Assembly (NCBI RefSeq): GCF_964204645.1
Contig: NC_134030.1
Location: 15,252,110-15,316,109 of the forward strand
Direction: 5' to 3'
DNA length: 64,000 nucleotides
Source of the DNA: Tubulanus polymorphus
Taxonomy: Eukaryota > Animalia > Nemertea
Shown here one piece after another: positions 1 through 53,002 of the stretch. The notes under the pieces are model-generated. The model was not told the DNA's origin, did not search any database, and saw nothing but the letters and a program-made list of their open reading frames with translations. Each line of letters starts with the position of its first letter. Position 1 is the stretch's first letter. Position numbers and translations under genes: made by a program.

Positions 1-379
1 AGTGAAATCTAAATATTGTGTGAATTAATTTTAAATCAGAATACTTCAAATTTTTATCTAAGTTATTTAAATGATCATTCCAACTTATTCCACATCCTGT
101 TGTTGCACAATAAACAGCAAAATCTAATTGGTTCTGCCAATACTTCATATTAGATTTTACTTTATATTTATGATATTCATCTCGAGTAAAAGTAACTTCA
201 TATGTATTAAATATATTTTCCATTTTAGAAATAAAAAACTGTGATTCATTAACATAAATTTCTAAATTAGTTAATGAATTTAAAACTATATTTTTATATG
301 TAATATTTTTCTTAAAATCTATTGCTGGAATATTATATTTAATTGATTTATTATATTGGAAAGCTTTTGGAAACCCCAT
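1..379 (-). CDS. Polinton-like virus hypothetical protein, 3'-truncated by the window edge (not in the ORF track)
   Basis: ATG at 379 preceded by the same TAATTTTTT..TAAATG motif as its neighbours. Reads MGFPKAFQY...YWQNQLDFAVYCATTGCGISWNDHL...IFRFH and is open to position 2. Confidence 0.8.
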   Translation of the reverse strand, partial: MGFPKAFQYNKSIKYNIPAIDFKKNITYKNIVLNSLTNLEIYVNESQFFISKMENIFNTYEVTFTRDEYHKYKVKSNMKYWQNQLDFAVYCATTGCGISWNDHLNNLDKNLKYSDLKLIHTIFRFH

Positions 380-395
380 TTATATAACTAAAAAA

Positions 396-830
396 TTAAT
401 AATTAACTAATTCTTTTAATAATTTATCTTGTTCTTCAACTGTTATATGACCATTTAAACTTATTATATAATCTAGTGTGTTCTTTAATTTATTAATTTC
501 TTTTATATTAGTTTTAATTTTTTCTTTATTACTTTTTATATTTAATTTTGAACTTATACCAGTTAAAACACTTGAACTTAATCCTAACACACCAATTGAT
601 ATAGCTAAAGGTGTTAATGGACTGAATATTGCTAGAAATGTTATTACAGAACTAATTGTAACCGAACCACTTATAATCAAATAATATATAATTTTACTTT
701 TTAGATATTTTTTCTTTTTTATCTTTAAGTCACTTTCAAATTCTAATATTTGTTTTTCTAAATATGTTTTTAATTTAGTTTTATTTATATCATGAGGAAT
801 AATATCAATACTATCAACTTTATCTTCCAT
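396..830 (-). CDS. Viral hypothetical membrane protein (two hydrophobic helices flanked by coiled coils)
   Basis: 144-aa ORF. Hydrophobic stretch IIYYLIISGSVTISSVITFLAIFSPLTPLAISIGVLGLSSSVLTGIS; TAAATG start motif. Confidence 0.8.
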   Translation of the reverse strand: MEDKVDSIDIIPHDINKTKLKTYLEKQILEFESDLKIKKKKYLKSKIIYYLIISGSVTISSVITFLAIFSPLTPLAISIGVLGLSSSVLTGISSKLNIKSNKEKIKTNIKEINKLKNTLDYIISLNGHITVEEQDKLLKELVNY

Positions 831-849
831 TTATTTAGAATAAAAATTA

Positions 850-1272
850 CTAATTAGTAAACTTATAAGCAACAAATATAACAATAACTGTTCCACCTAA
901 AATCCATATTATTTCATATTTCTGTTGTTCTTTACTTGGGGTATAATAATCTGATAATTTAGGTTTGTATAGATGTAATTTTTCTTTATTTGTTACTGCG
1001 TTATATAAACTCATTGCATCATCAACTGATTGAAAATCTCTGTGTGAAATCTTCTGATCATATAATTCTTTATTGATGTAATCCATATAGTTTTGTCTCT
1101 TTTCTCTATATTCTTCTGCATCTTTATTGTATTTCTCTAATGCTAAGTTATGTCTTTTTTGTTCTGTTAATGATCCATTTTTATCAATATGTTTAAATAA
1201 ATAACCACCACCAGTAAATGCTAAAGCGTTAACAATTGCTGATCCTATAATAGTTATAATTGCAGAAGCCAT
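850..1272 (-). CDS. Viral hypothetical protein: N-terminal amphipathic/hydrophobic helix, EQKRHN coiled coil, C-terminal TM (putative virion/membrane-active protein)
   Basis: 140-aa ORF MASAIITIIGSAIVNALAFTGGGYLF...EQKRHNLALE...IIWILGGTVIVIFVAYKF. Resembles small structural proteins of animal polinton-like viruses (from recognition, not a search). Confidence 0.8.
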   Translation of the reverse strand: MASAIITIIGSAIVNALAFTGGGYLFKHIDKNGSLTEQKRHNLALEKYNKDAEEYREKRQNYMDYINKELYDQKISHRDFQSVDDAMSLYNAVTNKEKLHLYKPKLSDYYTPSKEQQKYEIIWILGGTVIVIFVAYKFTN

Positions 1273-1296
1273 TTATTTAACAAAAAAATTATGTAT

Positions 1297-1518
1297 TTAT
1301 ATGGGAGGAATATATTTTTGTTTTTCCAAATAATCAATAGTTAAATTAGATAAAGTAACTGCTAATGTTAACTTTAAAATATCATTTATATCAAATCTAT
1401 CAACATTAACACTTCCCATTTTGAATACTTTTTTTAATACCATTGAATAACCAACAGTTCCAACTGATAGTAAGGCACCATTATATAATCCAGTTATTAT
1501 CCACTTATTATCACTCAT
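1297..1518 (-). CDS. Small viral hydrophobic protein
   Basis: 73-aa ORF with two hydrophobic/amphipathic segments; TAAATG start motif; tightly packed between neighbours. Confidence 0.78.
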   Translation of the reverse strand: MSDNKWIITGLYNGALLSVGTVGYSMVLKKVFKMGSVNVDRFDINDILKLTLAVTLSNLTIDYLEKQKYIPPI

Positions 1519-1521
1519 TTA

Positions 1522-1878
1522 TTAATCAAAAAAATTACTATCTTCAAAATATTTAGTTAACTTATTTATGATCAATTCAACATTTATTTTATTACTACTT
1601 TTATGATTATCATATATTTTGGTTAATATGTTTTTGATATCTTCAATGATAAAATCTTCATCTAATTCATAAAATCTTAAAGATTCTCTAATTAAATTAG
1701 TAATCTTTTCTACATTTAAAGTTTCTTTATCTATCGTTGTTTCATACTCAAATGTTGTTTCATTAGAAAATGTAATATTTTTGATATGTGTTATTACATC
1801 ATTAATGTTAAATTTCATTTCTTTCTCACGTTTAAAATCAAATCCAAAACATATACTCGGTCCAACAGTTATATTCAT
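1522..1878 (-). CDS. Viral hypothetical protein
   Basis: 118-aa ORF, TAAATG start motif, tightly packed. Confidence 0.72.
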   Translation of the reverse strand: MNITVGPSICFGFDFKREKEMKFNINDVITHIKNITFSNETTFEYETTIDKETLNVEKITNLIRESLRFYELDEDFIIEDIKNILTKIYDNHKSSNKINVELIINKLTKYFEDSNFFD

Positions 1879-1894
1879 TTATATATCAAAAAAA

Positions 1895-2650
1895 TTACTC
1901 TTTACATCTTATAACTAATTCATAAATTACAGGAAAGTTATTTAAATCAATTAAGTATCCATTATGATTTCTTATTTCTAATTTAAAATTATTAAATTTA
2001 GGAATGCATGGTTTAAAATCACATTCTGTTAAATTATAATTTATTTGAGTTCCAAATTGTTTAACATTTTTTAGCGGTAAAATATTTAGTATACTAGAAC
2101 TACAAATTGTTTCTTTAGTTGCTTCGAAAGTTTTTGTAGGCTCGATTAAATTGCAATAAATATAAAAGTGTGTAAAAGGTATTATATTTGAGCTACCTTC
2201 TGCGTTTCCAGTAACTGTAAGTGGTTTAATTCCTAACATTTTAGCCAGTGGTTTGTTTACCATAAATTTATGTTGTTCATTAGATATCTTTATTCTAATT
2301 TTATTAGTACTATCAATTTTATTAAATTTAATTTCAAATACAGAAGTGCCCCCGATTTTCAACCGAGCTCTTCTATTAATTTCCTGCGCTAATGATTCTA
2401 AATTATATAATCCTGGTTTTAAAAATATATGAAACCATTTATCTTTATTTCTCATATAAATCATAAACCCTCTATGTTCAAAAGTTTTATCCGATACATT
2501 GTAAAAAGAATTACATAAACTTATATTAACTAATTTTAAATCTACACAATTCTTAAATTCTCTATCTAATTGTACTAATAAATTATGTGATTTATAATTT
2601 GTAAGTCTTCTAGAATCAACAAATATTCTGTATTCTTTTAATTCTACCAT
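1895..2650 (-). CDS. Minor capsid protein (penton, single jelly-roll) of a polinton-like virus
   Basis: 251 aa with penton-typical pattern IFVDSR...NSFYNV...PGLYN...LAKMLG...YIYCNLI...LEIRNHNGYLIDLNNFPVIYELVI. Confidence 0.8.
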   Translation of the reverse strand: MVELKEYRIFVDSRRLTNYKSHNLLVQLDREFKNCVDLKLVNISLCNSFYNVSDKTFEHRGFMIYMRNKDKWFHIFLKPGLYNLESLAQEINRRARLKIGGTSVFEIKFNKIDSTNKIRIKISNEQHKFMVNKPLAKMLGIKPLTVTGNAEGSSNIIPFTHFYIYCNLIEPTKTFEATKETICSSSILNILPLKNVKQFGTQINYNLTECDFKPCIPKFNNFKLEIRNHNGYLIDLNNFPVIYELVIRCKE

Positions 2651-2667
2651 TTATTTTACATATTTTC

Positions 2668-3009
2668 TTATTCGAAATCTATTTCATGGTGCCCTTTTTC
2701 ATTCTTACCTTTGTATACGAAATAGAAATCACCAGAACATAATTCTTCTAAATCTTCACTTGATAATCTATGAAATCTATCTGGTAAATAAGTTCTGAAT
2801 TTATATGTATTTCCTTTTAATCCTTCATATTCTAAGTGTATAACTAATTTATCTCCATATTTATTAGTAATTGTTTCAATGTTAGTAATTGAATATTTCT
2901 TGTGAATTGTTAACTCAGTTAGTTTTTTAAATTTATAATCTACAGATTTTACATTTGTGGTATCTTTAATTCTATCTAAGAATTCATTGTGTACTTGTTT
3001 ACTCTCCAT
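2668..3009 (-). CDS. Small beta-rich viral protein next to the polymerase, possibly an OB-fold ssDNA-binding protein
   Basis: 113 aa, FKKLTEL..KKYSI...TNKYGDKLVIHL...TYLPDRF. The SSB function is an inference from the pattern and position. Confidence 0.6.
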   Translation of the reverse strand: MESKQVHNEFLDRIKDTTNVKSVDYKFKKLTELTIHKKYSITNIETITNKYGDKLVIHLEYEGLKGNTYKFRTYLPDRFHRLSSEDLEELCSGDFYFVYKGKNEKGHHEIDFE

Positions 3010-3037
3010 TTATTATACAAATTTTTATTGAAATTGA

Positions 3038-6000
3038 TTAACACGCTAGAATCCTTTTCATAATCTCATTTTCTTTTGTTTCTTCTCTTTTGAATTTTAT
3101 ATATTCATCTAAATTGCAACCATAGGCGACTGTGTGGATTCCATCATCTAAAATATATCTTTTATCATCAAATGGGTTTAGACTTATCTTCTCTATCTCT
3201 TCAATATACATTTCATGATCTTCAGATCTTAAACATTTCATTTTATGTTTTCTAACTTCTTCATTAAATATACAATTGATGTAATCTTTGAAATGAATAT
3301 TCTTTTCAACAACGCTTTTGGTAATTCCTTTTAACTTTTTAGCTTCATGTTCTTTAGTTTTATATGAATACATTTTAGATGTAATACCAATGAACTCTAT
3401 CATTTCTTCACCACCTAATTCATCCTTAAACTTCCCTGGAACTTTTTTATTATCATTGCTAAACAATTCATGATTTTTTGGATAATTACTAAAATCAAAA
3501 TGATGTTTTAATGTTTTTAAATCATCTGTTATGTTATCAGTTTTTATCTTTAATATGTAAGAATCTGTATCAAAATATAAGATTTCTATATGTTTTTCTC
3601 CAAAATGGGGTTGTAATATGTTATGATAAAATTGATACATTAATAACTTTGAAATTTCTAGAACTGATGCACCAACATAAATAGGTTTATTGAACTTCAT
3701 TGAAGTTCTTCTCATCTTAACTGCTGCTAAATTTTCATCAAATATTCTGTTACCTATAAACTTAGGATATGATTGTAAATGCCTAATTCTTTTACCATTA
3801 CTGACTAACTCGATATCATTTCTATTTCTAATATTTTCACAAGTCTTACCATAGAATGCATTATTCATTAGTTTGAAGAAATCTTTTTCAAAATCAGTTT
3901 TAGATTTAGTTCTCTGTGTAGTATTAAAATCTATATATTTTTCTAACCATTTAGATTGACTAAATGAAATATATCTATATACTTTTTTTAGGATGATTCC
4001 TTGATTCAAATAAAACTTCAACATTCTATAATGCACAACGTAATTATATTTATCTTCTTGAGTTACCATTAACTTTTCAGTATGAATATGATTATCGGGT
4101 TTAATTCTTTTTTGATAATTTGATAATTCTTCATGTTTAACAGTTTTATGTTCGGGACAATATGCTAGATTTCTAGATTTGAATTTAATGTTTTCGGGGT
4201 ATTTTAAATCTACAACAAAGAAGTAACCAGTATCTGAATCATCTGCAATATCTAGAATTCTTTTCTTCCAATCAAATTTATCAATTTGTAAAACTTCAGT
4301 TATTTCAAACATCCCATAAGGTTGTGGTTCCATCATTGCCCAACCATAAAGATTATTTGCATCTATGTATAATAATTTATATCCAAGATTATCATTTACA
4401 TTGAAATATCTATCACCCAATACACCTGAAACACCTCCTCTTATAGATTTTTCAAATAATAGTAATTGATCTATATTTGTTAACAAATCCATTTTTATAT
4501 CTGTAAATTTTAATCCACAATCCCATGTTAATCCTGGTGATGAATAACAATGACAAGGATCAATATTAAAATATTTTAGGTTTACATCTCTAAACCTTTC
4601 GAATATATCGGTTAATAATAATACATCTGATTTTAAATATAAATCTACTAATTGACCATGATTTTCTATTTTGAAATGATTCCAAATATTCAATGTTCTA
4701 TTATAAACTTCATCTTTAACATATTCATTTTTTAATTCATCATAAAATTGTTCTTTTAATAATTCAGTTATGTTAAAATCATTATGATTTTTATAGAAAG
4801 AATATGGAATCGCTCCTTTATATCTCATTAATTGAAAATCATCATAATTTGGGTAATATTCTTTTAATATCTTTAATTCATCATCAACTAATGATTTTGA
4901 TAAGTTATCTAATGAACTATTTAAAAATCTATATGAATCTATAAATCTTAGGCAACCAAATTGGAATGATATATAATTCTCAGATGTTTTAGCTAACATT
5001 CTAAATTTATAAGTTGGTATTTTATCTTTTGATCTATTTGAATTTAATATTTCTATTTCATTATTGATTTCTTCTATTTTATAACATAACTGTTTGATAA
5101 ATAAATGTGCATCATATCCTGATAGATTATGAAATATAACTGGTACAAAGTTAATTTTCTTAGCTTGTAAGTTACAATTCTCATGTGCAGCGCCTCTAAA
5201 CTTTCCGTTCAAATGATCATGGTCTCTTACTTTTTTATCATTATAATTAAATATCTTTTCACAATAATAACATTTATCTGCAAACGCAAATTCTTCTTTA
5301 TCTTCTTCTGTCATAATTATTTCTATATTTGTATTCAATAATTTACTAAATCTTATTTCATATTCAATTAATAAGTCACAAAAATGATTGATAACATTTT
5401 CATTTCTATAATTATAATATTCACTTTCAATTAGTTCTGGATAATTAGATTTAATATATAACCCGAAAGCTGCAGCTGATTGATGAATCTTTTTAATTGT
5501 TTTTGTTTTTGGTGGGTCTTCTGAATAATCACTTTCATTAGAATTTAATTTCTTTCTTTTATAATATATATCTTTTCTATCTTTATCTGTTAATTCTTTA
5601 TTTAATGATTCAAAATCTCCATATATTACAAATGGTACTTTATTTTTGTAATCATATTTTTTGAATTCTAATATTTTATCCTTTTCATTTGGTAAAACTA
5701 ATTTACAATAATCATGATTATCACATAGTTGTTTATGATTTAATAATGTACTTTCATTACTAAATCTATGTAAACATTTTCTACATAGATATATTTTATT
5801 ATGGTGATCACTTTCTGTTCTAAAAAATAAATCTATTTGTTTAATCCACATATAATGATTCTCATAATATAGTATATCTATAACATCGTTTGAATCATAA
5901 TCTTTTGATAGGTATAAAGGTTCTAATGTATAATGTTTAATATTATTTCCTTTTGTATTTGGTAATTTAATTAAATCAAATACATTTATTTTAAGATTAT

Positions 6001-7069
6001 TATCTCTTTCTATTTTGGGGATGTTTTTAATTCTAACAGGATACTTATCTATCTTATAATTATTTTCAAATGGTTTATAATGAGTTAATCTAAAACTATG
6101 TGTAATATCTTCTGTTGGATGTAAACAACTTATTATAGCCCATAGAAAACATTTATCATCTTCATTTTGTATATTTATTACAGCATTAGTTTTAAATGGT
6201 AGTTTAATATAACTTGTTCCATTTATACTATCATCTTTATAATATGATAAATTATTTTCATCAATTGGTTTTGATTTAGTTAACTTATTATATTTTGTGT
6301 TATAAACATGTAAAGTTATAAATATTATCTCATCAAATATTAAACCAGATCCTTCAAAATATTTTTCTTCTATTTTAGTTTTTATTTCATTATAACATTT
6401 TTCTAATTTATCATCTATATGTTGTTTAGATATAATATGTTGTGAATGAGAATTTATATTATATATTGGTTTATCTTCAGATTTTATAAACTTTACTTTA
6501 ACTGATATACTAATTTTAGGATATTCAACATCTGTAATTATTTTTATTATTTCTTTCATATTTTCTAAATGTTTTTTATTTTCTTCTAATGTTTTACCTT
6601 TATGAAATTTAAACTCGATAGCTGCTGGACCAATATCACTTTTAAATGCTTCGGTTATCTCTATATCTTTTTTATTATCTAATGAATTAATATAATTTCT
6701 TACATCTTCCATGTATGGTCTTTTATTGTTTAATTTATTTTTTATTCTTTTAATTGTCTTCTGTTTCTTATCGTTATCATTATCAAAATAATCTTCACCT
6801 ATAATATCATTATTCTTATTTCTAATATGACTTATAGATTTTAAATGTTCTTTATAATATCTTTTATCACTGAATGATTGATTACATGTATCACATTTAT
6901 ATGTTTCTTTTTCATTCTTTAATTCTTCTAATTTAGTTTCTAATATATCATCTTCATACTCTAGTTTCAATTTATTCTCTAAATGTGTTATAGTTTTATT
7001 GTGTCTTGCTTTTTGGGATTTATCTATATCGATATTACATGTTGGGCAGTAGTATTTATTTGCTTCCAT
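3038..7069 (-). CDS. polB: Protein-primed family B DNA polymerase (pPolB) with N-terminal zinc fingers, OTU-like Cys/His domain and endonuclease VII-like insertion
   Basis: 1343 aa, uninterrupted. ExoI YGDFES, ExoII FHNLSGYD, ExoIII YLKSDV, PolA YIDANNLYGWAM, PolB KLMNNAFYGK, PolC YFDTDS. Also CYYC...DHDHLNGKFRGAAHENCN (Endo VII-like) and DKCFLWA...NHYMWI (vOTU-like). Confidence 0.97.
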   Translation of the reverse strand: MEANKYYCPTCNIDIDKSQKARHNKTITHLENKLKLEYEDDILETKLEELKNEKETYKCDTCNQSFSDKRYYKEHLKSISHIRNKNNDIIGEDYFDNDNDKKQKTIKRIKNKLNNKRPYMEDVRNYINSLDNKKDIEITEAFKSDIGPAAIEFKFHKGKTLEENKKHLENMKEIIKIITDVEYPKISISVKVKFIKSEDKPIYNINSHSQHIISKQHIDDKLEKCYNEIKTKIEEKYFEGSGLIFDEIIFITLHVYNTKYNKLTKSKPIDENNLSYYKDDSINGTSYIKLPFKTNAVINIQNEDDKCFLWAIISCLHPTEDITHSFRLTHYKPFENNYKIDKYPVRIKNIPKIERDNNLKINVFDLIKLPNTKGNNIKHYTLEPLYLSKDYDSNDVIDILYYENHYMWIKQIDLFFRTESDHHNKIYLCRKCLHRFSNESTLLNHKQLCDNHDYCKLVLPNEKDKILEFKKYDYKNKVPFVIYGDFESLNKELTDKDRKDIYYKRKKLNSNESDYSEDPPKTKTIKKIHQSAAAFGLYIKSNYPELIESEYYNYRNENVINHFCDLLIEYEIRFSKLLNTNIEIIMTEEDKEEFAFADKCYYCEKIFNYNDKKVRDHDHLNGKFRGAAHENCNLQAKKINFVPVIFHNLSGYDAHLFIKQLCYKIEEINNEIEILNSNRSKDKIPTYKFRMLAKTSENYISFQFGCLRFIDSYRFLNSSLDNLSKSLVDDELKILKEYYPNYDDFQLMRYKGAIPYSFYKNHNDFNITELLKEQFYDELKNEYVKDEVYNRTLNIWNHFKIENHGQLVDLYLKSDVLLLTDIFERFRDVNLKYFNIDPCHCYSSPGLTWDCGLKFTDIKMDLLTNIDQLLLFEKSIRGGVSGVLGDRYFNVNDNLGYKLLYIDANNLYGWAMMEPQPYGMFEITEVLQIDKFDWKKRILDIADDSDTGYFFVVDLKYPENIKFKSRNLAYCPEHKTVKHEELSNYQKRIKPDNHIHTEKLMVTQEDKYNYVVHYRMLKFYLNQGIILKKVYRYISFSQSKWLEKYIDFNTTQRTKSKTDFEKDFFKLMNNAFYGKTCENIRNRNDIELVSNGKRIRHLQSYPKFIGNRIFDENLAAVKMRRTSMKFNKPIYVGASVLEISKLLMYQFYHNILQPHFGEKHIEILYFDTDSYILKIKTDNITDDLKTLKHHFDFSNYPKNHELFSNDNKKVPGKFKDELGGEEMIEFIGITSKMYSYKTKEHEAKKLKGITKSVVEKNIHFKDYINCIFNEEVRKHKMKCLRSEDHEMYIEEIEKISLNPFDDKRYILDDGIHTVAYGCNLDEYIKFKREETKENEIMKRILAC

Positions 7070-7149
7070 TTTAATACTATATTTTTTATTAAAATTGATT
7101 TTAGAAGTTCAATGATTTAAATGTTATTCATTTATGTGAATATTTTAAG

Positions 7150-7337
7150 AGTAATAGGGATAATAGGCTTTCGTATCAAAGGTTGAAGGGGCGAGTGAGT
7201 AAAAAAATGAAAATAATAATAATTTACAGTTGAATTAGGAGTGTGCGCGACTAATTCAACTGTAAATTATTATTTTCATTTTTTTTACGAGCTCGACCCT
7301 TCGACCTTTGGTATGAAAGCCTATTATCCCTATTACT
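7150..7337. repeat. 188-bp near-perfect palindrome/hairpin at the virus-host junction
   Basis: AGTAATAGGGATAATAGGCTTTC...GTTGAATTAG, 12-nt loop (7239-7250), then CTAATTCAAC...GAAAGCCTATTATCCCTATTACT. Confidence 0.92.
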
Positions 7338-21289: not shown

Positions 21290-24200
21290 ATGGCTACCTC
21301 ACTTGGTCCTTTCTGTGATTCTTTAGGAATCGATAGCGAAAACCTTCTTGATAATCTAAAATGTTTGAATCCTGCTGACAAAGAATGGGAATGTATATGA
21401 GATTTTCAATTACGCTACAAAAGCCACAATCTCATGGATTGAAATAGCTAAGACATTAGGCTATGTATACCCACACATATCCGGTATACATTCAGGTAGA
21501 ATAATAAGATCTTCATTCAGTCAAGTTCATTGCAAAAGGAGGGCTATATCCAAAAGCAAGTCTTCAGAATACCTGAATCAAACTTACATCATGCCTAATG
21601 TCGATCCAATTACTACACCAGAACAATCTTCAGAATCCAACCCTTTGGCTACAAAGCGACAAAGGGTTTCATTTGAACAAGATATAGTGAACGAAGTCTC
21701 CATAACTATGGCTCGTGAAATAGCTGAAGCTAAAGATAGATTAAGATCCTTAGAAGAACAGAATAGCAATCTAAAAAGTAGAAATGATTCACTTGAAATG
21801 GAGAATTTGCAATTGAAGCAAAAGCTGAAAAAATTGCAATACGAGCCGCACTAATTTCCTCATGAAAAGGAAAGAAGCTTCAGCAAAATTGTGGAAATCA
21901 AGATATTTGGATTTAAAATCAACAAGTGAGGCTCAGAATGTTGCCAGGCTTCAGTCCAAACTGCAGAAAGCCAAACAAACTATCAGGCAACTTCAGAAGA
22001 ATAAATCAAAAACAAAATCCCGTTCACTATTATCCAGATCTAGCTTGAAAGAAAAACATTCCCAGAATTTAAATGTATCTCTTTTGGAACATCAAGAAAA
22101 TCTCTGTGGAAAGGTAAAAAGGATTTCATCTCTTAATTCAGAAGTTAGTCATCTACAGGATAAATGTTTGACTCTAGAAAATAGGGAGAATCAGGTATTA
22201 GGCGCTAAAATGGACGGAAGAACGTATTCGCATAAAATTCGTGAAGCTAGCTATCATCTGCAGAACTTAGGAATTTCTCAAAAAAATGTTTCAACTGCCA
22301 TTAAATTAGTAAATTCTGCTCTCACCGACACTGAACTATCTGGAAATATCCCTTCGTATACAACCCAGAATCGATTCACTAAAGAAATGAAAGCTGCCTC
22401 TAGGTCTTGGGTTCAAGAAACCATTGAGAAATAAGATAATCTCACAGTCAAATACGATGGAACTACAAAAAAACTAGGACATCTTGTAGAAGTTGAGGTA
22501 GCCACCAAACAAGGCGACTTACTAATGGGACTAACCATTCAAGCCGGTGGAACTGCTGATGAATATACTAAAACCATCATTAAAGCATGCAATAGAATCG
22601 ATTCTTCGAATTCTCAGAATTCAGTAGATTCCAACTCTACTTTGAATAAGATCAAAAACACCATGTCTGATCGTGTCACTACGAATACAATGATTGAAAA
22701 ACAATTAGAAAACTTGATAGGCCATAACTTGAATAACTTTAAATGTGCCATGCACCCACTAGAGGCAATGGCAGGCGACTGTGAGAAAGTGATCAAGATA
22801 TATGAGGCATCAGTTGACATAGCCAGCAAAAAGATTGGCGTCAATTATCCCTTTCTACATCGCGGTGAGAGCAACACAGTAGCTACAGTCAGAACAACCA
22901 GTAAATTATTTCATGACACAAAGTACAACTGTAGCACTGAATTGAGCAGTTTTCTTCATTCTAAAGGAATCGTACCTGAAACAAAAAGAAGAAAATCAGT
23001 ACTTAATAATCGTTTTGTCTGCAATAGGTTTCATGTAGTTTTCCTCTCATGCGGTTCATTATACCATTATAAATCAGGAATTATCGAATTTTTCAATGAC
23101 ACTTTCAGTCCTCGAAATGTTGTTCAAACAAGTGTACTGAACGCATTACAGTTGAAGTGGATCCGTGTTTACGTAGTCAGGGAATCATAGGCAAAGTTTT
23201 AACCGGACCTTGGATGCGACTCTTAGGCCAAACGCGGAATATTCTTGAAATGAATGAGCACTTTGAAATAGCTCATTCAAGACTTGGTGCTTGGGCAAAG
23301 GATGCTAGTAGTCTTTTGACACCTGATGCTCCTTGTGCTTTTGATCTTGTTGATATCCAGAGAGATGCTGTATTTCGAAGTTTAACCGCACCAAGTCATT
23401 CAGATGGAACCACTTTAAGTTTATTGAAAGACCTGTGCCAAGCATGTTTGAATGTGATGGACAGGCAATTGAAATCTCAACTTCCTGGTGGAATTTTTGA
23501 CAATCCATCTGCTCAGCTATTAGAAGAAGCCGCATCCTGCTCAAATACAAACATAAGCGGAGAACGAAATTTTGCGTCAGCAGATCAGGAAATTGCGCGT
23601 GCCAGAAATGCGAAAATAGAAGAATGGCTATATAGAAGCTACGGTTATGTTTCGAAAGAATAAAACAGGCGAATGGTTACGATCGAAGTCAGATGTTGAT
23701 AAAGAAAGTGTAATTAGTCTAGCTAGAAGATCAGTTAAGAATATAAACGAGCTTGATCGATTAGATGAAGAGGAACATTCCGAGAAAATTCAAAATAAAC
23801 TACTTGAGGCGCGAAAAAAGAAATTAGAAAAGGAAGATCGCGACAGAGCTAAATTTGAACAATGGCTCGAATGTATGTTTCAATCTGGGGGTCTCTGGAC
23901 TGGACCCGATATGATGGAAAGTTATCTGGCTGGACATTCTAAAACAAAATCCTTAGAAGTAATTAAATCTCCGATTAATATTCGAACTAGAATCTTTCAA
24001 TGTCAGCCTGAGTCGAAGATAACATTTAGCAAGTCCACTTTAGAAGATTTGGAATCGATCATGAATGAGCTGTTTGAAATTGCCATTCCATTAGAAATGA
24101 TAGACTTATTTGAACTGATAATTACACCGCATAGTTTAGTTAGTAGTAATTTTTCGCAGAGATGGCTAGATGAAGGGACAACCAAATGGTATCATGGATA

Positions 24201-24336
24201 TTTTGAGTCAGTAGAAGTAACTAAGCGCAGAATTCTAGATTTTAAAGTTGTATTTGATAATGGTGAATTTTGTTATATGTCGGCTGATGAAATTATTGTT
24301 GATATTACGCGTAATGACGTTGAGCTATTCCCTTGA
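21290..24336 (+). pseudogene. Decayed DDE transposase of the CxxH clan (hAT/P/MULE-related, hAT-like E motif)
   Basis: Consecutive broken ORFs 21591-21854, 21862-22434, 22525-23190, 23157-23663 and 23647-24336. Motifs VKYDGTT (D), MSDRVTTN (D), CAMH, TNISGERNFA (E). Confidence 0.8.
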
Positions 24337-30662: not shown

Positions 30663-32244
30663 TCAGTTTTTTTCCCCAAAGAAATCGGTTATTTCCATTT
30701 GCTTTTTCGGAAGCTTTGCCAGGTATTGATGGACCCGCTCAGTGAATGCGAGAACATCGTCAGTAAACTCCTGTGAACTCTGCGTTAACGCGTAACTACT
30801 AAGTGTTGCGAGAGATTGACGAATGGCAGCAGCTGATGGAGGGGTAGGATTAAATTCTTCTTCTTCCTCCTCAGTGTCGGAATTTTCATGGTAATCCATA
30901 TTGACGTCGGTTTCGTTGAACATGAGTCACAATGTCCGAATCGCTCATTTCCATGTTGTCTGAAACTTCCAAATTGTCATCAACCGGTGGTAAATCATTA
31001 CCATAAATCGTACCAAGACGATCCCAGATGTTACGGAATTCACGCTGCTCAGTAGGCTCTTGTGAGCTTGTGGAAACGACTTCGACGATGTCGTCTGTAT
31101 CAAGATCAATACCTGGTGCAACAAACCCAGTTGATCTAAAACAATTTTCTATAGCTTTTTTAGAAACTTTCATCCAGGCTGATTTTATCGCAACAATCGC
31201 ATCTAAAATGTTCCACTTTAAGTCTTGATTTGCCTCAGCAGCCGTAAGACGACGAGTAGCTAATATTTTCCTGTAGTAAAACTTTAAGTTTTTAATGACG
31301 CCGCCATCCATAGGTTGCGTAATCGAGGTAGTATTAGGTGGTAAAAACACAAGTTCTATGTTCTTTAGTTCAATGTTCGGGTGAGCGGTACAATTGTCTA
31401 CTATCATGCATATTTTTCGTCGCTGAAGTAACATTTTACGATCCAATTTCTGTAACCATTCGATAAAAATAATTCCCGTCATCCACGCTTTCTTGTTGGA
31501 CAGGTACTCAACTGGAATTCTTACAACATTTTTGAACGCCCTTGGTCTCTTACTCTTACCAATGGCCAGCAGCGGCAGTTTATCGTCACCATTCATGTTT
31601 GCAGCAACTAAAACCGTGATGCGGGTTTTTGCCTGTTTAGACCCATGATCTTTAGAACCCTTGAAGCCAAGCGACTTCTCTGGCAGTAACTGCCAGAACA
31701 AGCCGGTCTCATCGGCATTATAGATATCACTGGGCCTGTATTGTTCAAGAATTTCTTTCAATCGCCCATCTTTCCATTCATTAACTATAACCTGGTCAAC
31801 ACCTCCTGCTTCTCCAGCTTTTAGAATTTTCACGATTCCATATCTGTGTCTAAATCGACTGATCCAGCTAGCAGATATGTTGGATTCATGTCCATTTTCA
31901 CGGCTAAAATAATTTGCCTTGGTCAGCAACATACCGCCATCAATCCTGAGATCGGGTTTCTGGCTTAATTGGCAGAACCAGATGATCAATGCCGCGTCAA
32001 CATCTGATAAGTCAAGGGTGCGTGCTCTCTTGATTGAACCTTTCCTTGCATCCTGCGGTTTTTCAACTAGACTCTTTATTTTTTCATTATTTTTGATATA
32101 ATCGTTCAGTGTTTGTGGTTTTAAATCGAATTTCAGACCAATGTCCTTCTTCTTCCAGTTTTGATGGTTTTCGTAAAATTTCATAATCTCGTATTTTTCC
32201 TGATAAATACGGTCCGTACGTTTTCTTTTTTCCATCGTGAACAA
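30663..32244 (-). CDS. pogo/Tigger transposase (CENP-B-type HTH + DD29D), one frameshift near the acidic C-terminus
   Basis: ORF 30886-32244 has YNADETGLFW, IVDNCTAH and QPMDGGVI. The C-terminal tail (EEEEEE...KQMEITDFF) is in 30663-30923. Confidence 0.92.
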
Positions 32245-32660
32245 ATGAATGAACGAATATACAGTAGCCGAGTGCAGTAGTATAGCCTATATAGCGACTC
32301 TTTGAAGCAACAGTAGACTCATATAAATAGCGACAGTGTTGGCCTGGCATTTTAATCAATACACAGTGTCTGGGATTTTGAGTTATCGTTCTAACTACGG
32401 CGGCACGCTATGTTTTAACGGTGATTTGTAATTAATAATAAAATGTTTTTTACGATACGGATTATCCGACCGTTAATGTACATGGTTTGCACAATTGGAC
32501 CACATATATACTACGGATTAAGTGAAAATACGGATTATTTTGAACGGATTAATTAAAAATTTTATTAAGGGTTTTAACAGTAAATAAACGGGACTGAGTA
32601 AAATATACGGAATATCTAAGAATACGGATAAATCGGCTCCGGATTAAGCGGATTTGACTG

Positions 32661-42996: not shown

Positions 42997-45440
42997 TGTT
43001 ACGACCAATTGAGAATCCTCTTGCAAATTCCTTGAAGTCAAGCATAATAGAAGAACGACTTCCACATTTCATGTAACAGCAATTTATTCTATGTAATACC
43101 GGTGTTGCCGTAACTCTCAAACTGCCTGCATGTTCACAAATCCAGATATTTATTTGAAGACTGTGAACACGCAGTACAGTCCCAGTGATTCTTAGCTCAC
43201 AATATATATATAGAAGTTATGCAGACAGTTTAACACAGAAATATGAATATGCAAGATAGAATACCATGGAGATTATATACATTTCACATACATAGACATA
43301 ACACACGCCCCCCTCCCCTCCCCCTTAAGAGGGTCAGTCAAATTTATTACAGCACAAACTACAGAATGAACTAAAAAATGTTCAGAATTTCTTCTTCAAA
43401 ATTCCATCTTCACAGTAATAGGCCTAAATGCAATTAGATTCTGGAAAGAGTGTCGGTTATCACATTATTCTTGCCACGAATATGATGAATCTCAGGATTA
43501 TATTCTTGTAACATAAGACTCCATTTCATTAATCTTTATTACGGTTACACATTGATTTCAGAAATGTTAACGGTATGTGGTCCGTAAACACGAGTAGTGG
43601 AAACATTCTCATTGATGTATACCCATTAAAATGTTCAAAAGCGAGTACAAGTGACAAATATCTTTCTCGATTGTTGAGTAATTCAATTGTGCACCAGCAA
43701 ACTTCTTAGAATAATAACATACCGGATGGTCGATATCATTTTCATCAGTTTGAACTAATACCGCACCCGTGCCAATGTCGGAAGCATCAACAATCAATTT
43801 AAATTGCTTGTCGAAATCTGATGCTAACAAGACAGGACTACAAGTTAACAAACTCTTCACAGATTCAAAAGCAATCTGACACTCCTTTGACCAGATCAAT
43901 TTAACGTCTTTCTTCAGTAAATTCGTTAATGGTTGAGCTACTGATGAAAAGTTTCTGCAAGACTTTCTGTAATATCCAGCCATTCCAAGAAATCTCATGA
44001 TACCCTTCTTATCTACAGGAACCGGATAATCAATAATAGTTTGAATTTTAGCTGAAATTGGTTTGACATGTCCTTCACCAACTGCGTGACCCAAGTATCT
44101 AACAGTCGCTTTTCCGAATTCACTCTTAGATAGATTAATGGTGAGATTTGCAGTGGTCAGATTTTGAATCAAACCACGCACTTGTTCAGGATTTTCATTC
44201 CAATCAGCAGAAAAGACAACGATGTCGTCCAAATAGACAATCACACACACTAACCCTTTAACCCTTTCAGTGCTGGCTTATTAATACCCTATAGTGCTGA
44301 AGATAATTTGAAAATTCTGAAAAATTCCACCCTAGTGTGTTGAATAACGGGAATAGCACTATAGTGTTTCTACACCCTGGCACGGTATATCGTTAGTTAC
44401 TAATATTTCACTATATTAGACAGGTGCTGCCATCTTTCAAGAGAGATAATTAGTAATTACTAATTAAATCAATACACCGCAGTGCGGTGTTCTAGCAAAA
44501 TCCATCACTGATTCATACACCGCACTGCTTTGTTCATTAATCTTTGGAAAGAAGCGGCTGAGTTTTTCATACCAAAAGGCATGACCTTATGCTGAGACAA
44601 CCCATCAGGAGTTACGAAAGAAGGTATCTCTTTCGCACGGTCAGTCAGTGGAACTTGCCAGTACCCATTATTTAGATCAAACTTTGATACAAATTTGGCT
44701 TTGCCGATTTTATCAATAAGGTCGTCAATTTTAGGCATCAGTTAATAATCAGTTTTAGTTAGTGAATTAGCTTTCCTATAATCGGTGACAAAACGCTCTT
44801 TCCGCCAGGTTTAGGCACATGGATACATGGTGAGCTCCACTGACTGTCGCTAGGCTCAGCTACTCCTAATTTCAACATTTCGATCACTGATGTCTGCCTT
44901 TTCAGGATTAAGACGGTAATTATGTTGTTTAACAGGGCGAGAATTACCAACATAAACATCATGTTTTAAAAGATAGTCAAACCAGGTTTTTGTGTGAATA
45001 GATGTTTATATTCAATTAGCAAATCAGTTAATTGAACCTTTTTGTCAGATTCTAAACGCTCTGAATGACAATTAATCTTTTCGAGAAAATTATCATTTTT
45101 TACAGTTTTTTCAACATTGTTACTGCCCAAACTACTACGGTCCAAATAGTCATCGAATTCATAACAATCATCAACATTTTCGACTAAACTATTTACAGTT
45201 TGAACACTAGAATACGATTCTGAGACTAACGGTCGGTTTAAAGACATGCAAGATTCCACTTTCTCTTTATACGGTTTAAGCATATTTATATGACACAATT
45301 GCAATTCTTTTCGGCGATCAGGAGTTTGTATAAGATAGTCAACATCATTTAATCGCTTTTGAACTATGTATGGACCGTGGAATTTGCAGTCAATGAATTG
45401 GACTGAATAGGGAAGAGTACTAAAACTTTATCATCACAGG
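42997..45440 (-). mobile_element. Ty3/gypsy LTR retrotransposon 3' half, Gmr1-like order (INT-RT-RNaseH), with PPT and 3' LTR
   Basis: GPY..CHINMLKPY integrase tail (~44966-45440) lies upstream of RT (SQWSSP, FDLNNGYWQ, MPFGMKN, YLDD) and RNase H (DASDIG). PPT at ~43306-43326; LTR TGTTA...TAACA at 43303-42997. Degenerate. Confidence 0.88.
44258..44500. mobile_element. Short piggyBac-like (TTAACCCTTT) insertion interrupting the gypsy RT
   Basis: Non-coding insert between MPFG and YLDD beginning TTAACCCTTTCAGTGCTG; right TIR not evident. Confidence 0.5.
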
Positions 45441-51213: not shown

Positions 51214-51332
51214 GAGATATAGACTAAAAACAGGGGTATATATACAGAGGAGGACAGGTTAATTGAGTAAATTGGTGAGTGAGTGAATAATTAGTGTTTG
51301 GCAAGGCATGAAGTAATATACTTAGAAAGAAG

Positions 51333-53002
51333 CCATCAAAACCATCCGCATTTCCAAGGCTGATAAAGGCGGCAAAATTGTTATTCAAGATTTGATCAAT
51401 TACAATTCTAAAATGTGTGCTATTCTCGGTGATTCCAATTTCTACAAATCCATCAAAAACAACCCTTTGAAAAAGATGCAATCAGCTTTTAATTTAGGTT
51501 TAAAAAACATCTCTAAGAAATTTCCTGACCATTCGGACTTCATCTCCAAATTTAACTCTCGGCTTCCAAATCTTCCTTATGCTTATGGTCTTCCCAAAAT
51601 TCATAAACCCAATTCACCTTTAAGACCGATCATTTCTGATATCAATTCTCCATCATATCGGTTCTCCAAATATCTGGCGAAAGTACTCTCCCCGGCTTTG
51701 GGTACTTTTTCTGATTCTCACATTCGACACAATATGGATCTTTTAGACAAACTCAAAAATCTCAAACCTAATGGACAAAAATTTATATCTTTCGACGCTG
51801 TTTCCTTGTTCACTAATATACCATTGGAACCAACTCTCAATTTCTTAAGAAGAAAACTCCCGGACTCCAATCTTGATCTCCCAATTCCTGTAGAATGTTT
51901 ACTTGAACTTTTGGAACTCTGTACTACCAATCTATATTTCCAATTCCAAGACAAATTCTATGAACAAATTTTAGGTTTCGCTATGGGTAACCCATTATCC
52001 CCCATTTTGGCTAATCTTTTCCTTGAACATTTTGAATCCGAAATTCTCCCTAAGTACGCTGGCTCTAAACCTAACTTTTGGATTAGATATGTTGATGACA
52101 TTTTGTGCTTAGTTTCTGATAATTTTGATCTTACCTCTTTTATCGACTTCATCAACTCCCATTATCCATCTTTGAAATTCACTTTTGAATGGGAACAAAA
52201 TGACCAAATTCCATTTTTAGATCTTCTAATTCACAATAAATTTTCTCATTTGATTTTCTCAGTCTACCGTAAACCTATCAATGCCGAGGCATACCTTCAC
52301 TTCTTTTCGTTTTCTGCCAAATCAATCAAAATTGGTCTCGCTCAAGGCCTCTTTCTCCGTGCACTATGGATCTGCGATGAAACCTTCCTTTCGGCTGAAT
52401 TTGACCATATATCCAACTCTCTTAGGAAATTGGCTTACCCTGATCACATGTTGAAAATCGCTATTTCTAAGGCTAAACGTACTTTCTTCATTTCTAAACC
52501 TCCAGAAAATAAAAAACACATTTCAGAGTTCATTGTAGTTCCGTATGTACCTGTTTTGGAAAAGTTTCATCACTCTCTCCCTTTATTGGATAAACAAATC
52601 ATTTTCACGTATGAAAACAAAATTAGTAAGACTTTGGTTAAAAACAATCAATCTAAACCTTTGGACTGCAGAGTTTACAAAATTCCTTGTTTTGGATGTG
52701 ATAAAATTTACTTTGGAGAAACTGGTCGTGATTTAAAAACTCGAATTTCGGAACACAAAAAGGATATAATAAATCAAAAACCGGCTAGTGGCGTAGCCAA
52801 TCACATTTGGAACGCTGGTCATCGTTTTAATTTTGATAAAGTCGAAATTATTTATACTTCCAGCAATTACACTAAACGCCACATAGTTGAGTCTGCCCTA
52901 ATTACTCGTCACTCAGATATTAGTACCAATTTAAATAATGGCTTATCTCCGCATAATTCCCTTCTTTCTAAGTATATTACTTCATGCCTTGCCAAACACT
53001 AA
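51333..53002 (+). CDS. Penelope reverse transcriptase + GIY-YIG endonuclease (open frame, 5'-truncated)
   Basis: KADKGG, YGLPKIHK, SFDAVSLFTNIP, GFAMGNPLSP, RYVDD, FLDL, VYKIPC..C..YFGETGR..RISEH; no stops over >536 aa. Confidence 0.95.

Follow-up and report, generated by a model that had tools for sequence, protein, structure and literature searches.

How the genes of a Maverick/Polinton-type element lodged in an animal genome are expressed, and whether a helper virus is needed for it, is the question raised by a 64,000-nucleotide (nt) stretch of the nemertean Tubulanus polymorphus (contig NC_134030.1, positions 15,252,110 to 15,316,109 of the forward strand; the window below). One end of such an element, which continues beyond the window, occupies positions 1-7337 on the minus strand, where eight genes, all on that strand and none of them for an RNA polymerase, are visible as open reading frames. 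An initial annotation had proposed two promoter classes, one with an A-run before the genes for the DNA polymerase, a putative single-stranded DNA-binding protein (SSB) and a penton, the other with a T-run before the small genes, and had taken them for a two-stage programme borrowed from a poxvirus-like helper. The analysis shows the feature to be real and conserved; the two-stage label is plausible and less clean than proposed. By analogy with poxviruses, the motif may be a switch that is read by a helper's poxvirus-type RNA polymerase and turns A-form genes on before T-form genes; this reading is given a probability of about 0.45.

The start motif and its four-base switch

Positions are numbered upstream from the T of TAAATG, at which seven of the eight genes start; the polymerase gene starts at TAAAATG. 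At -13 to -10 the three proximal genes (polymerase, SSB-like and penton-like) carry AAAA (3/3) and the five distal genes TTTT (5/5), as the initial annotation had it. All motifs lie on the minus strand. The A form was located at 7067-7095 (the terminal slot with TAAAATG, before the polymerase gene), 3007-3037 (SSB-like gene) and 2648-2667 (penton-like gene; T form in a minority of family copies), directly preceding the ATGs at 7069, 3009 and 2650. The T form was located at 1876-1897 (118-residue gene), 1516-1538 (73-residue gene), 1270-1292 and 828-850 (140- and 144-residue genes, each with two hydrophobic segments) and 377-398 (gene truncated at the window edge). At 13 other sense-strand TAAATG sites, AAAA occupied the same positions in two cases and TTTT in none.

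T was found at -9 in 8/8 window genes and G at -6 in 6/8. Because these bases are common to both forms and the register is exact, the two classes are variants of a single scaffold that differ by a four-base switch and do not represent separate promoter types. What stands of the two-class proposal is the split itself, which is kept on the polymerase-block genes of close relatives; the proximal half of the motif is shared, and the forms intergrade.

The penton and SSB motifs, said to agree at 18 of 22 positions, do differ at 4/22. Beyond the common TAAATG they are alike at 12/16 positions, a match with a chance probability of 0.0008 (random element windows) or 0.012 (pooled upstream composition). 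The polymerase motif is alike at 7/16 positions with the SSB motif, at 9/16 with the penton motif and at 6-8/16 with those of the T-form genes, only the A-run being common. For the three A-form genes to occupy the three terminal places the probability is 2/56 (0.036), and 6/56 for any contiguous block. A pattern built after the fact from these starts, which does not cover the polymerase motif, gave seven matches, all of them gene starts, with none on the other strand and none in the 56.6 kb flank, the expectation by Markov simulation being 0.035. The T-run was assigned to the downstream ATG because the gap from a T-form gene to the upstream stop varies (3 to 24 nt); the motif of the 73-residue gene (gap, 3 nt) falls within the upstream coding sequence and is thus anchored to the downstream start.

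The motif in relatives and family copies

Polymerase searches yielded 119 loci. Class tallies were limited to six close relatives showing a start (L024-L028 and L034), L028 and one L026 gene, which duplicate L025, being counted once; the remaining loci served as controls. A strict A-form pattern matched 0/121 loci and was too narrow, so tallies were based on positions instead. The tree was built with FastTree from the last 520 residues of each locus's longest open reading frame (1000 residues or more) and 12 database polymerases (73 rows).

In nine polymerase-block promoters, namely those of the polymerase, the SSB and the neighbouring gene in three lineages (the window, L024 and L025), A was found at 34/36 switch positions and pure AAAA in 8/9. 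Since this persists despite polymerase four-fold sites that are only 55-57% identical across the three (saturation, 43%), the comparison suggests that the A form is under selection, the promoters being not fully independent and possibly copying one another within an element.

The gene order in L024 and L025 is end, SSB, polymerase. Across the family copies the polymerase gene may stand before or after that of the SSB, and the joints lie at A-form motifs (2651-3040 and 7065-7103). The SSB was placed behind the terminal-type motif in 137 reads and was followed by the polymerase-type A form in 52; joints linking the start of the SSB with the terminal motif were seen in 63 and 91 reads. Because reads and relatives show both orders with joints at motifs, gene cassettes appear to swap around the start motifs, and some joints could be alignment effects of similar motifs.

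Several other loci were recorded on the way. L003 (38% guanine plus cytosine, GC), L045, L046, L048, L052 and L101 belong to distant polymerase lineages in which most starts, or several of them, are TAAATG, each lineage having upstream sequence of its own. In L105 (320-9277; polymerase 33% identical), TAAATG or TAAAATG opens 10/14 genes, TAAAAA stands 12-18 nt upstream of 7/10 such starts, nearer to vaccinia intermediate spacing, and the sequence upstream of the SSB-like gene is T-rich. The polymerase frame of the metagenome contigs L026 (1-336) and L028 (116-488) is broken near its 5' end.

Possible staged expression and the competing explanations

In vaccinia, the late consensus is T, N9, TAAATG, the intermediate consensus is TAAAAA, N14, TAAA without T at -10, and T at -10 divides the two classes (PMC11980589; PMC11423596, Table 1). 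The T form satisfies the late rule, with TAAATG over the start codon in 5/5 and T at -10 within a T-rich stretch in 5/5, and in this the call of T-rich, late-type promoters is supported. The A form has the TAAA initiator in 3/3 and an A preference upstream, with T at -10 in 0/3 window genes and in 0/9 polymerase-block promoters. TAAA without a following TG is a vaccinia intermediate feature (PMC11980589), and in this respect the TAAAATG of the polymerase gene is intermediate-like. The element thus resembles vaccinia post-replicative promoters in its TAAAT initiator over the start codon, in a T at -10 confined to the T form and in the A versus T preference upstream; unlike theirs, its two forms share T(-9) and G(-6), its A-run lies 5 nt closer, and its promoters stand in an integrated element without an RNA polymerase gene in the visible part. 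Vaccinia intermediate genes encode DNA-binding, packaging and core proteins, including the capsid-like D13 and the packaging ATPase A32, and membrane proteins are found among the late genes (PMC11980589). The penton, regarded at first as an exception to the split, is not necessarily one, since D13 and A32 are intermediate genes.

That every gene bears a conserved signal of poxvirus type points to expression of the Maverick in the cytoplasm, driven by a helper. Because no RNA polymerase gene was seen, intergenic gaps across the element end measure 3-28 nt, and the polymerase gene contains 40 canonical poly(A) hexamers (17 AATAAA and 23 ATTAAA; AATAAA 17 observed vs 15.9 expected, no avoidance), host nuclear transcription would be unlikely and the factory of a cytoplasmic helper the likely site of expression. 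Transcription would begin within the AAA of TAAAT, and the RNAs would, like those of poxviruses, bear a poly(A) leader at the 5' end. Poxvirus early transcription takes place within the incoming core, so the intermediate class would be the earliest that DNA from outside can reach, which would fit polymerase and SSB; if so, the genes for copying would be expressed as soon as foreign DNA can be transcribed at all. The T form would depend on late factors. We infer that there is a helper, where transcription starts and when each class is expressed, and the intermediate spacing of this helper would have to differ from that of vaccinia. A poxvirus-type start signal predicts a poxvirus-like virus in the host lineage, and the switch motif could be used as a sequence tag for tracing it in existing data. 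The wider proposition, that a clade of animal Mavericks consists of virophage-like parasites of an undiscovered poxvirus-like virus which have rebuilt its intermediate-to-late cascade through the four-base switch, with the shorter spacing as the helper's fingerprint, is possible and rather doubtful. No helper virus came to light in motif scans of viral_contigs (2, 0 and 27 loci), which gave no relative, no motif at a called gene start and no locus with mostly TAAATG starts.

Several observations weigh against the staged reading. From the A-run to TAAA the distance is 8-9 nt in eight of the nine polymerase-block promoters (the run is absent in one) as against 14 in vaccinia intermediate promoters, so that the run lies about 5 nt, about half a helical turn, nearer than the vaccinia core (-19 to -15). 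The A-run as a vaccinia-type intermediate core is therefore not supported; the A form may at best work like an intermediate promoter, and by spacing it is not a member of that class. Conservation across orthologues, on which the proposal had been staked, holds in L024 and L025 and breaks down in part elsewhere: L027, a sister lineage (tree support, 1.0), has a T-form polymerase promoter that is 12/16 like four window T forms, and a minority of penton copies are T-form. For the latter, 79 reads of run X6 carry the T-form motif before the penton gene vs a depth of about 633 over the A form, counts in which divergent copies may be missed, the T-form reads stopping short of the bases between initiator and ATG; the seven-T motif sits in the T-form register, and the same is seen in six X1 contigs. 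Hybrids were found as AATT (the L027 697-residue gene and L034), AAAT (the L026 129-residue gene) and ATTA (the L025 SSB), and the integrase start of L026 has neither form. Judged from these sequences, the form is a tunable setting and not fixed per gene, some orthologues changing form. Distant elements have TAAATG starts with different upstream sequence (e.g. L003, 7/7 genes), so TAAATG alone names no poxvirus and the helper need not be a strict poxvirus; use of TAAATG in distant polymerase lineages hints that several independent helpers may be involved. Controls lacking TAAATG starts show no AATAAA avoidance either, relatives were present among the fetched loci for only 3/5 T-form proteins, with none shown to be structural, and in Sputnik the motif class foretold the measured timing only in part (PMC11998528).

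A close rival of the two-stage programme, somewhat improbable on its own account, is one late-type promoter with a strength dial, in which all genes are expressed at the same stage, strongly from the T-run and more weakly from the A-run for polymerase, SSB and a low-copy penton. The T at -9, the G at -6 and the spacing to TAAATG that both forms share, the failure of the A form to keep vaccinia intermediate spacing, and hybrids that grade between the forms would all follow from it. Upstream T-runs strengthen vaccinia late promoters (a supporting paper was not found in the search), and a low number of pentons per particle is established for this capsid type, which agrees with the A form on that gene. 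SSB, normally needed abundantly, also bears the A form, which such a dial would not predict; moreover, 34/36 A is a specific conserved sequence beyond mere loss of T, and the TAAAATG of the terminal slot is intermediate-like. Stage and strength could be told apart with short reporter fragments carrying the four-base switch.

It is unlikely that A and T are simply interchangeable, with a reader protein that recognises A-tract shape in the minor groove and a grouping of A- and T-form genes that results from the copying and shuffling of cassettes and has no regulatory meaning. The TpA step is absent at -14 to -9 in 17/18 promoters, AAAT and AATT intermediates exist, polymerase and SSB are joined at motifs in both orders, and polymerase and penton are each found under both forms, all as such a reader would allow; the TATA-binding protein reportedly targets vaccinia intermediate and late elements, according to the title of one study cited in PMC5294985. 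Free interchange should, however, have mixed A and T forms, and is disfavoured because the A form was kept over three lineages with largely randomised silent sites while TTTT was retained on five unrelated genes of one element.

Host nuclear signals are a very unlikely explanation, in which the AATAAA-like hexamer would serve the preceding gene as its poly(A) signal, with the T-run as a U-rich helper element of that signal and the A-rich start as a translation context. AATAAA, ATTAAA or TATAAA does lie over the initiator at 19/19 listed clade starts, and TTTTTNT is matched by 4/5 T-runs. Yet the motif keeps its place relative to the downstream ATG at distances from the upstream stop that range from 3 to 28 nt, it is also found ahead of terminal genes, before which no other gene lies (the window polymerase, the L024 SSB and the L027 polymerase), and the hexamers inside the polymerase gene are undepleted.

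Least probable of all is an early-type core (A-rich and broken by TG) like those of the linear plasmids of yeast and the early genes of poxviruses, since the published geometry (core end about 12 nt before the start site) would put the transcript start about 11 nt inside the reading frame, the TG at -7/-6 is common to three T-form genes, and low TTTTTNT counts in coding sequence reflect a general avoidance of homopolymer runs. A depletion of TTTTTNT in coding sequence (3 vs 8.4) was considered as a sign of early-type termination and rejected, T- and A-runs being low in most control polymerases too.

The element end, its genes and related systems

The element end (1-7337) is set off from the host by its GC fraction (0.21-0.25; flank, about 0.35-0.42). 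In run X6, 1969 reads diverge from the window sequence behind 7337, and read depth is about 275-1870 on the element vs 6-16 on the flank (element coverage about 40-100x flank, a rough figure). Because reads depart at 7337 and coverage is far above that of the flank, the element is taken as a multi-copy family. In run X1 the summed contig depth on the element was about 1000x that of the flank, which is not a copy number. An integrated family B polymerase gene together with a capsid gene likely makes this a Maverick/Polinton, the penton assignment being likely, not proven; an rve integrase is present on the relative L026.

The last 188 nt (7150-7337; no strand assigned) form a terminal imperfect palindrome (z = -18.8; 0/200 shuffles as stable), both arms of which bear terminal sequence; it could be a hairpin origin or a resolution site. 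A comparable nested palindrome lies ahead of the first gene in L024. A ninth sense-strand TAAATG at 7131 (7117-7150), just inside the palindrome, has an A-run one base off register and opens a four-codon frame.

The family B DNA polymerase (3038-7069, minus strand; 1343 residues) has relatives at 40-80% identity, some with PF03175, and is presumably of the protein-primed type, from what is known of the family. Its own Pfam matches were Endonuclease_7 and zinc fingers only, none reaching cut-offs.

The designations SSB and penton, given in the initial annotation, both hold as likely. The 113-residue protein (2668-3009, minus strand) is likely an SSB by its predicted fold, which is like that of phage SSBs. 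Its single-sequence model (predicted local distance difference test score, pLDDT, 46.5) had zero fold matches at Z 5 or above and was replaced for the fold comparison by an alignment-based model (pLDDT 80.9), for which the best viral fold match was a phage SSB (E 3.2e-5) and the best PDB match the PRD1 SSB P12 (E 2.2e-3), with no PDB match at or below 1e-3. The 251-residue protein (1895-2650, minus strand), likely a penton (minor capsid protein), matched DUF5901 at E 5.5e-4, short of the cut-off. Its Atlas look-alikes scoring 0.97-0.98 are viral clusters, one of them named for the Sputnik minor capsid protein V18/19 (a family carried by 26% of its members). A penton profile search found 0 relatives among 150 viral_contigs stretches and 0 matches among PDB sequences.

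The description of the T-form genes as small membrane genes applies in part: hydrophobic segments above 1.6 were found in 2/5 of their proteins and not in the rest, one of which is truncated by the window edge. The 140- and 73-residue genes (853-1518) have relatives at 35-43% identity in L035, L036, L040 and L048, elements without the A/T switch. In the host flank, frames that by eye are transposase-like, long-terminal-repeat-retrotransposon-like or reverse-transcriptase-like lie at 21369-24336, 30886-32286, 43609-45427 and 51326-53002, and families of a 154-nt repeat are also present; a host gene was not recognised.

That helper promoters are borrowed in stages has been published before; the literature searched contained no Maverick with a promoter pair of poxvirus type. 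TAAATG promoter classes in Mavericks were likewise not met with there, most subscription papers and supplements being outside its scope, and a term search in 10.1101/2024.03.23.586382 and 10.64898/2026.06.19.733378 found promoters unmentioned.

The entomopoxvirus-associated polinton-like viruses (Barth et al. 2024, PMC11296320) tie polinton-like elements to poxviruses and show that poxvirus parasitism by such elements exists; unlike the present element, they have an end module of tyrosine recombinase and primase-helicase. No promoter analysis is given in that paper's main text, where a term search found no mention of motif, transcription, TAAAT or upstream. The yeast pGKL virus-like elements (PMC6211774) are likewise cytoplasmic, AT-rich and linear, and their TAAAN initiator yields transcripts with 5' poly(A) leaders; in contrast, they have their own RNA polymerase and a single upstream element, of early type, which precedes the ATG by 20-40 nt.

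Staging itself is documented in protist systems. Sputnik has early and late gene groups (PMC11998528), EMALEs make staged use of helper motifs (10.1101/2025.10.09.676808, 10.64898/2026.07.28.741278) and rely on the late motif for reactivation (10.1101/2025.10.09.676808), PgVV-14T has an early motif on polymerase and recombinase (10.1101/2022.07.28.501842), and in the pacmanvirus transpoviron the helicase has an early motif and the virion proteins have late motifs (PMC11788076). By analogy, the last two may be taken as precedent for an earlier-class helper motif on replication genes. Like the candidate parasite described here, Sputnik, mavirus/EMALE, PgVV-14T and the transpoviron are parasites of large cytoplasmic DNA viruses that bear the promoter motifs of their helpers; theirs, found in protists, set an early against a late motif and are of mimivirus or asfarvirus type, whereas the Tubulanus element would carry two post-replicative, poxvirus-like classes in a Maverick.

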